Source: Escherichia coli
Lineage (GTDB): Bacteria; Pseudomonadota; Gammaproteobacteria; Enterobacterales; Enterobacteriaceae
Direction: 5' to 3' (one strand)
DNA length: 852 nt
Assembly: GCF_003334335.1 (NCBI RefSeq)
Contig: NZ_QOWQ01000144.1
The notes under the pieces were generated by a model. It was given only the letters and a program-made list of their open reading frames with translations. It was not told the DNA's origin and made no database searches. Below, piece by piece: positions 65-852 of the stretch (position 1 is its first letter; each line of letters begins with the position of its first letter). A program made the translations under genes and the position numbers.

Positions 65-852
65 AAGATTTAGCAAGTGCGCTTGATGTGACGGAAGACG
101 TAATTGATTCAATTTTGCATGCAATGCAGGGGCGGGTTCTGGATGGTGACCTTATTTCCGGATGGGAAAAACGTCAGGTGCTGAAAGAGGACAATGGTAA
201 CGTTTCGCAAACGGCAAAATCCCCGGCAGAGCGCAAGAGAGCGCAGCGGGAGCGCGAAAAGCTGCGGAAATATGATGCTGATTGTCACGATGAGTCACGA
301 CGTGTCACGCATCTGTCACGACAAGTCACGACAGATAAAGATACAGATACAGAATTAAACCCCACACATAACGCGCGCATGCGCGAGAGTGCTCCAACCG
401 GTGAGTCGCATGGTGCGCCGTTGCAGACAGCCGAACCTGAATACCTGGACGGCCTGAGCGAACCGATCGGGAAATTTTCGATGACTACTGTCTGGCAGCC
501 GTCGTCGGATTTTCGACAACGGGCAGCAGTGTGGGGTATGGCTCTGCCTGAGCCGGAATTTACACCTGCTGAGCTTGCCGCATTCCGGGATTACTGGATG
601 GCGGAGGGGAAGGTTTTCACACAGGTTCAGTGGGAGCAGAAATTTGCCCGCCACGTGCAGCACGTCAGGACACAGGTAAAACCAGTCAGCAAGGGGGTAA
701 GCCATGCAGCATCAGGTGGCACGGCATCACGGGCAGTTCAGGAAATCCGGGCAGCACGCGAACAGTGGGAACGAGACAACGGATTTATCAGCAACGGAAA
801 TGGCCTGGAAGCTGTGGGAGCTTATGGGGGAGGTGTATTCGAACCGCTGGAC
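1..852 (+). CDS. Replication initiator / replisome-organizer protein with DnaT-like C-terminal domain; internal fragment, 5' and 3' ends both outside the window
   Basis: Frame 1 (codons at 1, 4, 7...) has no stop across all 852 nt, while frames 2 and 3 carry stops in the first 110 nt (e.g. TGA 51-53, TAG 71-73, TGA 84-86, TAA 101-103). Residues encoded by about nt 466-672 (GKFSMTTVWQPSSDFRQRAAVWGMALPEPEFTPAELAAFRDYWMAEGKVFTQVQWEQKFARHVQHVR) share the motif string W-Q-P-x-x-D-F ... A-x-W-G-x-A-L ... E-L-A-x-F-x-x-Y-W-x-A-E-G-K-V-F-x-x-V-Q-W-x-Q-K-x-A-R that I recall from the C-terminal domain of E. coli DnaT. The N-terminal two-thirds does not resemble chromosomal DnaT and contains the iteron arrays, as expected for an initiator whose origin lies inside its own gene. 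Homology is from memory, not a search. Confidence 0.8.
281..333 (+). repeat. Iteron array B: 5 direct copies of core GTCACGAC at 10-11 bp spacing
   Basis: GTCAC occurs at 284-288, 294-298, 304-308, 315-319 and 325-329, with spacings 10, 10, 11, 10. Extended copies are gtcacgat, gtcacgac, gtcacgca, gtcacgac, gtcacgac, in the same orientation as array A. Confidence 0.75.
333..360. other. AT-rich tract with AGATA(C/A) x3 tandem; candidate DNA-unwinding element
   Basis: agataaagatacagatacagaattaaac has 21 of 28 A/T, in a window that is otherwise GC-balanced. AGATA starts at 333, 339 and 345. It lies immediately 3' of iteron array B. Confidence 0.4.
374..385. repeat. Perfect 12-bp palindrome CGCGCATGCGCG
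   Basis: cgcgca|tgcgcg is its own reverse complement. It is an alternating GC-rich run about 14 bp downstream of the AT-rich tract. The function is unknown; it also encodes part of the linker (A-R-M-R-E). Confidence 0.6.

Follow-up and report, generated by a model that had tools for sequence, protein, structure and literature searches.

How does a lambdoid prophage of Escherichia coli mark the beginning of its helicase loader gene when the preceding replication initiator gene is still being read? The question was raised by an 852-nucleotide (nt) stretch of E. coli DNA (RefSeq assembly GCF_003334335.1, contig NZ_QOWQ01000144.1), referred to here as the window, in which a Shine-Dalgarno-like AAGGGGG and an ATG at position 704 lie in a second reading frame (frame 2) of an open initiator gene (frame 1). 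A first-pass annotation had offered three explanations: that the initiator simply continues and the frame-2 signal is coincidental, that a downstream gene such as a helicase loader starts here, or that the frames are joined by a frameshift or recoding. We report here that a lambda-P-type helicase loader of 220 amino acids (aa), predicted to lie partly within the initiator gene, very probably has its true start at the conserved ATG 704.

Two genes probably share the site in different frames

The sequence at the site reads aagggggtaa (691–700) and gccatgcagc (701–710), with 6 nt between the last G of the Shine-Dalgarno element and the A of ATG; the positions first given for AAGGGGG, the frame-2 TAA and the ATG were exact. 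Frame 2 translates as ...SARG*AMQHQVARHHGQFRKSGQHANSGNETTDLSATEMAWKLWELMGEVYSNRW and stays open to the window end, matching the earlier translation letter for letter, and frame 1, as had also been noted, has no stop in the whole window. A promoter scan around the loader start found no internal promoter-like site, and an Rfam scan of the same region matched no family.

At 100% identity the window recurred in prophage DNA of several E. coli chromosomes, and 867 of 5,426 complete E. coli genomes contained a match to it; a megablast search of phage genomes gave partial matches only. It corresponds to positions 6001–6852 of the reference locus L001 (NZ_AP022815.1), which is a lambdoid early-right operon (dicB ... 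cro/YdaS-like, YdaT, initiator, P, DUF1627) with the loader gene directly downstream of the replication initiator.

Extending the sequence downstream on L001, the check that had been proposed, gave products with homologues in both frames. Frame 1 does continue, as the first-pass annotation had leaned: the initiator open reading frame (ORF) starts 125 nt before the window, runs for 60 nt beyond it and reaches a TGA at window-equivalent 910–912. Its RefSeq name is “DnaT-like ssDNA-binding domain-containing protein”, and it matched PHROG replication-initiation families (E-value 1e-118). Frame 2, for which an early stop and a product lacking homologues had been considered as the contrary outcome, ran from ATG 704 for 220 codons (L001 6704–7366, ending at window-equivalent 1366). 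RefSeq annotates a “replication protein P” of 153 aa (L001 6905–7366) from an ATG at window-equivalent 905, in the same frame as ATG 704, so that the annotated P gene is contained within the 220-codon ORF. Initiator and loader thus overlap, out of frame, by 209 nt, and two of the earlier options, a continuing initiator and a helicase loader starting here, are both true and not exclusive.

The frame-2 product belongs to the lambda P family

The PHROG 109 profile (“P-like helicase loader”) aligned loader residues 14–220 to profile positions 18–236 of 236 (E-value 2.4e-62), and Pfam PF06992 covered residues 58–187 (E-value 1.9e-15), the model being entered at its position 31 at residue 58. Homologues in the databases (45–90% identity) were called at 212–223 aa with Met at the equivalent place, and this long form occurred in Escherichia, Klebsiella, Enterobacter, Salmonella, Raoultella, Symbiopectobacterium and others; a loader of 220–223 aa is already produced by gene callers in public databases. 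Eight residues were nearly invariant in the homologue alignment (M41, R48, W49, K52, N53, G54, P57 and W61), all upstream of M68, the annotated start, and M41 is itself preceded by an AW.LW motif in which W35 and W38 are conserved. Positions 11–189 of a loader-family profile aligned to residues 13–202 of the 233-aa lambda P in the Protein Data Bank (PDB), with an E-value of 3e-7.

An AlphaFold2 model of the 220-aa loader had a mean predicted local distance difference test score (pLDDT) of 75.8. Residues 1–25 scored below 50, and helices 26–45, 47–53 and 59–66, upstream of the annotated start, were modeled at a pLDDT of ~83. The best three fold matches in the PDB were lambda P chains of the DnaB complex, 9oa1_Z being matched as a full chain (218 columns, E-value 1.8e-5). 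Template modeling scores were only 0.42–0.47 because the domains are flexibly linked; loader domain III alone superposed with a root-mean-square deviation of 1.7 Å over 70 columns. In the published structure of lambda P the N-terminal “lasso” (domain I, residues 1–29) is disordered and domain II (~30–119), which follows it, is compact (PMC12661323). As modeled, the 220-aa form reproduces this domain architecture, the 153-aa form would lose three domain II helices and a start at M41 would halve the first helix. Profiles and predicted fold together identify the frame-2 product as a lambda-P-family helicase loader, predicted to load DnaB; here too the first-pass suggestion of a helicase loader held.

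Start codon and Shine-Dalgarno are conserved across lineages

Signal strength was expressed as the predicted pairing energy of the 18 nt upstream of an ATG with the 3′ end of 16S rRNA. In the window this was −11.8 kcal/mol for ATG 704, compared with −3.3 kcal/mol for ATG 800, −6.5 kcal/mol for ATG 824 and −3.1 kcal/mol for ATG 905, all three in the same frame. Taken as a single sequence, the Shine-Dalgarno at 704 was not beyond chance (~1.6% of initiator-gene positions reach −10 kcal/mol), and frame 2 stayed open over the ~30 codons between 704 and 800 in ~74% of synonymous recodings of the initiator, which was accordingly not counted as evidence. The start signal at 704 was raised above chance because it is conserved across lineages.

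From a collection of 256 related loci, 26 lineage representatives were kept that share less than 85% nt identity around the start. ATG was present at the equivalent position in all 26, 83–91 codons before a WPPDL motif; the few loci apparently lacking it ended at a contig end, had the codon just outside the search range or carried a broken ORF. The broken ORF was that of L068 (IMG/VR, ~2219–2264), in which a stop lies in the loader ORF 15 codons upstream of WPPDL and which is probably a pseudogene.

The initiator codons read across the ATG were always NAT followed by Gnn, and the residues encoded varied (H, N or Y, then A, E, D or V). In frame 1 the T of NAT is a synonymous site, yet it was never replaced by C, and NAC makes up ~55% of His, Asn and Tyr codons in the rest of these genes. 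Pairing of −7 kcal/mol or stronger preceded the ATG in 23 of the 26 lineages versus 6% of initiator-body positions, the mean being −8.8 kcal/mol at lineage starts and −3.0 kcal/mol in the background. The Shine-Dalgarno took the forms GGAGGT, CGAGGT, AGAGGT and GGGGGT in differing codon registers, and where Arg codons fell inside it, 11 of 11 were CGA or AGA, codons that make up 32% of Arg codons elsewhere. Since the registers differ and the Arg codons are only CGA or AGA, selection is more likely to have acted on the RNA signal than on a Gly-Gly or Arg-Gly dipeptide. Such conservation of start codon and Shine-Dalgarno across diverged lineages contradicted the earlier leaning that the frame-2 signal is coincidental.

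Each frame is constrained in its own part of the overlap

Per-site diversity (π) was calculated in window coordinates from an alignment of 153 unique sequences. Up to ~763 it peaked at frame-1 third positions; at 734–763, over the initiator helix RAVQEIRAAR, π was 0.18, 0.16 and 0.48 for the three codon positions. From ~790 the peak moved to frame-2 third positions (0.37, 0.12 and 0.14 at 824–853, in frame-1 order), and this pattern was unchanged past the initiator stop. Purifying selection was therefore seen in each frame, in complementary segments and not simultaneously. The overlap is divided between the two genes, with the initiator helix placed over the disordered N-terminus of the loader and the folded domain of the loader over the initiator tail.

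Beyond the loader ATG, frame 1 extends for another 191–224 nt in all lineages but L003 (25 of 26), where it extends for 113 nt. Synonymous recoding of the loader kept the frame-1 tail open in 0.09–0.41 of trials per lineage, with a mean of ~0.27 that takes in the trivial value of 1.0 for L003. The openness of the tail would point to selection, with the reservation that the lineages are not independent. The tail is necessarily translated, because frame 1 has no stop before 910. Loader-frame synonymous diversity was ~0.40 inside the overlap and ~0.46 outside, a difference too weak for a claim of extra constraint. Avoidance of T before AA, AG and GA codons (0 of 129 vs 191 of 727) was also considered but was not used. 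It is circular, since a region counts as overlap only where frame 1 has no stop, and it adds nothing to the recoding result.

These results indicated a genuine, conserved same-strand dual-coding overlap, in which neither frame is interrupted by a stop and frame 2 carries conserved start signals of its own. The features located in the window are collected in Table 1.

Table 1. Features of the initiator-loader junction, in window coordinates
Feature	Position	Strand	Evidence and remarks
Frame-1 ORF, replication initiator with DnaT-like domain, 345 aa	1–852	+	RefSeq coding sequence L001 5875–6912; ORF list
DnaT DNA-binding domain of the initiator, residues 201–266	475–672	+	Pfam PF17948, E-value 1.7e-16
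Shine-Dalgarno AAGGGGG of the loader gene	691–697	+	Within the initiator linker, frame 1 K-G-V; pairing −11.8 kcal/mol
TAA, 5′ boundary of the loader ORF	698–700	+	Frame 2; sequence and translation
ATG, proposed loader start	704–706	+	In 26/26 lineage representatives
Loader ORF, 5′ part, residues 1–49 of 220	704–852	+	ORF list; PHROG 109; lambda P profile and fold
Initiator C-terminal motif RAVQEIRAAREQWERDNG (frame 1)	730–783	+	Over low-confidence loader residues ~10–27; frame-1 diversity pattern; retained in L003, where the rest of the initiator is unrelated
Start of the loader folded domain, helices 26–45 and 47–53, AWxLWExMGEIYSNRW	790–852	+	Over the initiator tail (to 912); pLDDT ~83
In-frame ATG, loader M33, weak alternative start	800–802	+	−3.3 kcal/mol; Thr in most homologues
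In-frame ATG, loader M41, possible minor internal start	824–826	+	GGGAG 3 nt upstream, −6.5 kcal/mol

Alternative starts and a frameshift

Several observations weigh against a long overlap with a loader start at 704. The 26 lineages are not statistically independent, and the probabilities quoted are indicative only. In loader residues 1–25, a segment predicted to be disordered, no purifying selection specific to the loader frame is seen. On the initiator side, most of the apparent residue conservation in the tail mirrors the loader frame, and L003 has no tail. M41 is nearly invariant, as a start codon of a shorter isoform would be; GGGAG stands upstream of ATG 824, and the M41 equivalent has a pairing of −7 kcal/mol or stronger in 32% of lineages. 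Finally, the loader is given a shorter form in RefSeq and in three GenBank phage records, with ATG 905 as its start in RefSeq and in Rac-SA53.

The alternative that survived best was that the loader is made mainly from ATG 824 (M41) or ATG 800 (M33), as a protein of 180–188 aa with an overlap of 89–113 nt, and that 704 is used little or not at all. Besides the conservation of M41 and its upstream GGGAG, this would agree with the many database entries of 177–192 aa that begin at MGEIY or MAWQLW, with the unconstrained residues 1–25, and with L003, whose initiator stops only 11 nt past the M41-equivalent ATG. Against it, the purifying selection in frame 2 and the predicted helix both begin at residues 26–30, W35 and W38 are conserved upstream of M41, and lambda P is colinear with the loader from about its residue 13. 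As frame-2 selection is seen from about loader residue 30, upstream of both M33 and M41, translation must start earlier. The candidate codons themselves are also imperfect: M33 is Thr in most lineages, L090 lacks M41, GGGAG is spaced only 3 nt from ATG 824, which lies inside the predicted helix 26–45, and the mean pairing at M41 across lineages was −5.9 kcal/mol. In three lineages (L094, L102 and L103) M1 is followed by no further ATG, GTG or TTG before the conserved Trp is reached. An internal start would moreover leave the strictly conserved ATG and Shine-Dalgarno at 704 unexplained. We consider it unlikely as the main source of loader, although initiation at 824 or 800 is possible for a minor isoform.

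It is very improbable that the annotated ATG 905 is correct, giving a loader of 153 aa and an overlap of 8 nt, with the frame-2 signals upstream of it arising by coincidence. Short overlaps beside a stop codon are the commonest arrangement, and that of lambda O and P is 4 nt, but pairing upstream of 905 was only −3.1 kcal/mol and M68 is Leu in many lineages. Residues well upstream of residue 68 are covered by both profiles (Pfam and PHROG), by the alignment with lambda P and by the structure model, and the nearly invariant residues 41–61 would be left untranslated despite the frame-2 selection pattern. The three phage records moreover choose three different truncated starts (Rac-SA53, 153 aa; PPompW, 140 aa; Citrobacter phage Chris1, 136 aa), and for this reason the short forms were taken to reflect annotation heuristics that avoid overlaps and not evidence of a start. 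Identity by tblastn in those records begins at loader residue 2. All four curated loader starts (L257, 1699–2160, 153 aa; L258, 1753–2163, 136 aa; L259, 1738–2160, 140 aa; L001, 6905–7366, 153 aa) avoid overlap with the initiator, and homology begins ~200 nt upstream of them.

A programmed +1 frameshift near 691–706 that fuses the initiator to the loader frame, which the first-pass annotation had left as an option, is scarcely credible: a Shine-Dalgarno-like element upstream of the frame change superficially recalls prfB, and the 482-position profile of PHROG 15931 is matched by initiator and loader both, but the junction (AAG GGG GTA AGC CAT GCA) has no 0-frame stop or obvious pause site (no formal motif scan being made), a −1 slip would enter the closed frame 3 so that frame 2 requires +1, the complete and independently conserved Shine-Dalgarno and ATG make a shift unnecessary, and the sole initiator-loader fusion in the databases (P0106) is joined elsewhere, by a deletion at loader residue ~103. 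In P0006, P0032, P0036 and P0045 there were likewise internal deletions or joins to other sequence, among them a DUF1627-loader fusion. Together with P0106 and the chimeric PHROG 15931, they look like products of decaying cryptic prophages and not of recoding.

Architecture of the initiator and a candidate origin

The initiator matched the NCBIfam DnaT equivalog NF002770 at 93.4 bits (cut-off 201) and only over model positions 82–155 of 179. Because 93 bits is well short of the 201-bit cut-off, the initiator is not a DnaT orthologue. It had been remarked earlier that frame 1 runs at least 65 residues beyond the KxAR motif, compared with about 35–40 residues in chromosomal DnaT; this was roughly right, the equivalog match ending at 155 of 179 at residue 268 and being followed by ~50 extra C-terminal residues.

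Among the lineages, initiators carried at least eight unrelated N-terminal domains on one common C-terminal module, which consists of the DnaT-like domain, a linker holding the loader Shine-Dalgarno and ATG, the RAVQEIRAAR helix and the tail. Mosaic initiators were found in L002, L003, L090, L100, L104, L105, L107 and L114. That of L003 (DUF1376 type) shares with the window initiator only residues 282–318 (37 residues), and these are the stretch encoded within the 5′ end of the loader gene.

The hexamer GTCACR occurred 11 times in the window, against 1.5 expected by chance, as two clusters of five direct repeats with ~10-nt spacing (3–60 and 284–330) and an inverted copy at 87–92. Lambda ori lies inside gene O, and by analogy the GTCACR clusters inside the initiator gene are probably the iterons of a candidate origin. 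Window 336–388, directly after the second cluster, holds an A/T-rich stretch, gataaagatacagatacagaattaaa (G+C content ~0.42), and then at 372–385 the G+C palindrome cgcgcgcatgcgcg, a sequence flagged on the minus strand as terminator-like. The two could be a candidate unwinding element and a flanking structure of this origin.

Comparison with known systems

The gene pair resembled lambda O-P, an initiator with candidate iterons inside its own gene being followed by a P-family loader. The loader matched lambda P (PDB 9oa1 and 8v9t) by PF06992 and PHROG 109, was colinear with it over the full length and had it as best structural match, and the N-terminal ~25–30 residues are disordered in both, as a prediction for the prophage protein. 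In other respects the systems differ: the overlap is 4 nt in lambda and 209 nt, in different frames, in the prophage pair; the prophage initiator is not O-like but combines an N-terminal domain of its own with a DnaT-like domain; and loader identity to lambda P is low (~15–18% in structural alignments). With E. coli DnaT the prophage initiator shares the DNA-binding domain PF17948, whereas the N-terminal half with candidate iterons and the ~50 C-terminal residues that overlap the loader gene are extra.

Long same-strand overlaps of phage genes in different frames are known from phiX174 A/B and D/E and from lambda Rz/Rz1. As in these, the second protein here would be made from an internal ribosome-binding site, and an ordered part lies over a weakly constrained part; the prophage pair differs in being a partial 3′/5′ overlap of two old, widespread replication genes and not a gene embedded de novo, and in that the two proteins are expected to interact. 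A literature search, itself incomplete in coverage and hence not proof of novelty, found nothing relevant on this overlap or on DnaT-like prophage initiators.

A model for the overlap and its implications

In the arrangement we propose, one mRNA would carry two out-of-frame genes overlapping by 209 nt. Ribosomes on the initiator would read on in frame 1 to the TGA at 910–912, and others would start independently at AAGGGGG and ATG 704 in frame 2 to make the 220-aa loader. The loader start signals would be placed in a flexible linker between the DnaT-like domain of the initiator and its C-terminal helix. Over ~730–790 selection would act on the initiator helix (RAVQEIRAAR...), with the loader N-terminus, the counterpart of the lambda P lasso, tolerating the result; over ~790–912 it would act on the folded domain II of the loader, with the initiator tail tolerating the result and being kept free of stops.

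Lambda O binds P through its C-terminal domain. By analogy, the initiator stretch encoded in the 5′ end of the loader gene may dock the loader, and the overlap may keep the matched pair linked. More tentatively, and in our view doubtful, the overlap itself could be a selected linkage device, with a docking helix, RAVQEIRAAREQWER, and an acidic tail encoded in the alternative frame of the loader gene. If this were true, docking peptide and loader would always move together, as a single recombination cassette able to join any origin-binding domain. On this reading, a loader ribosome-binding site that lies within another translated ORF might also keep loader synthesis low, excess loader being toxic. 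If docking alone were true, the pair of initiator tail and loader would be kept together during mosaic recombination.

Hundreds of E. coli genomes, and prophages of Klebsiella, Salmonella, Enterobacter, Citrobacter and Pectobacterium, carry the loader gene concerned. RefSeq and phage records truncate it by 27–84 residues, removing half of the equivalent of lambda P domain II, and any homology search, structure model or expression construct based on that short form would be in error. The analysis corrects a widespread loader annotation error and adds a new, well-supported case to two kinds already known, the lambda-P-type loader and the long overlap of phage genes. Overlaps of such length are usually dismissed as mispredictions; here ~200 nt are conserved between two core replication genes under complementary constraint. 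In such a region single silent mutations can separate initiator and loader genetically, and the overlap offers a testable idea of how initiator-loader specificity may be held together in mosaic phages.

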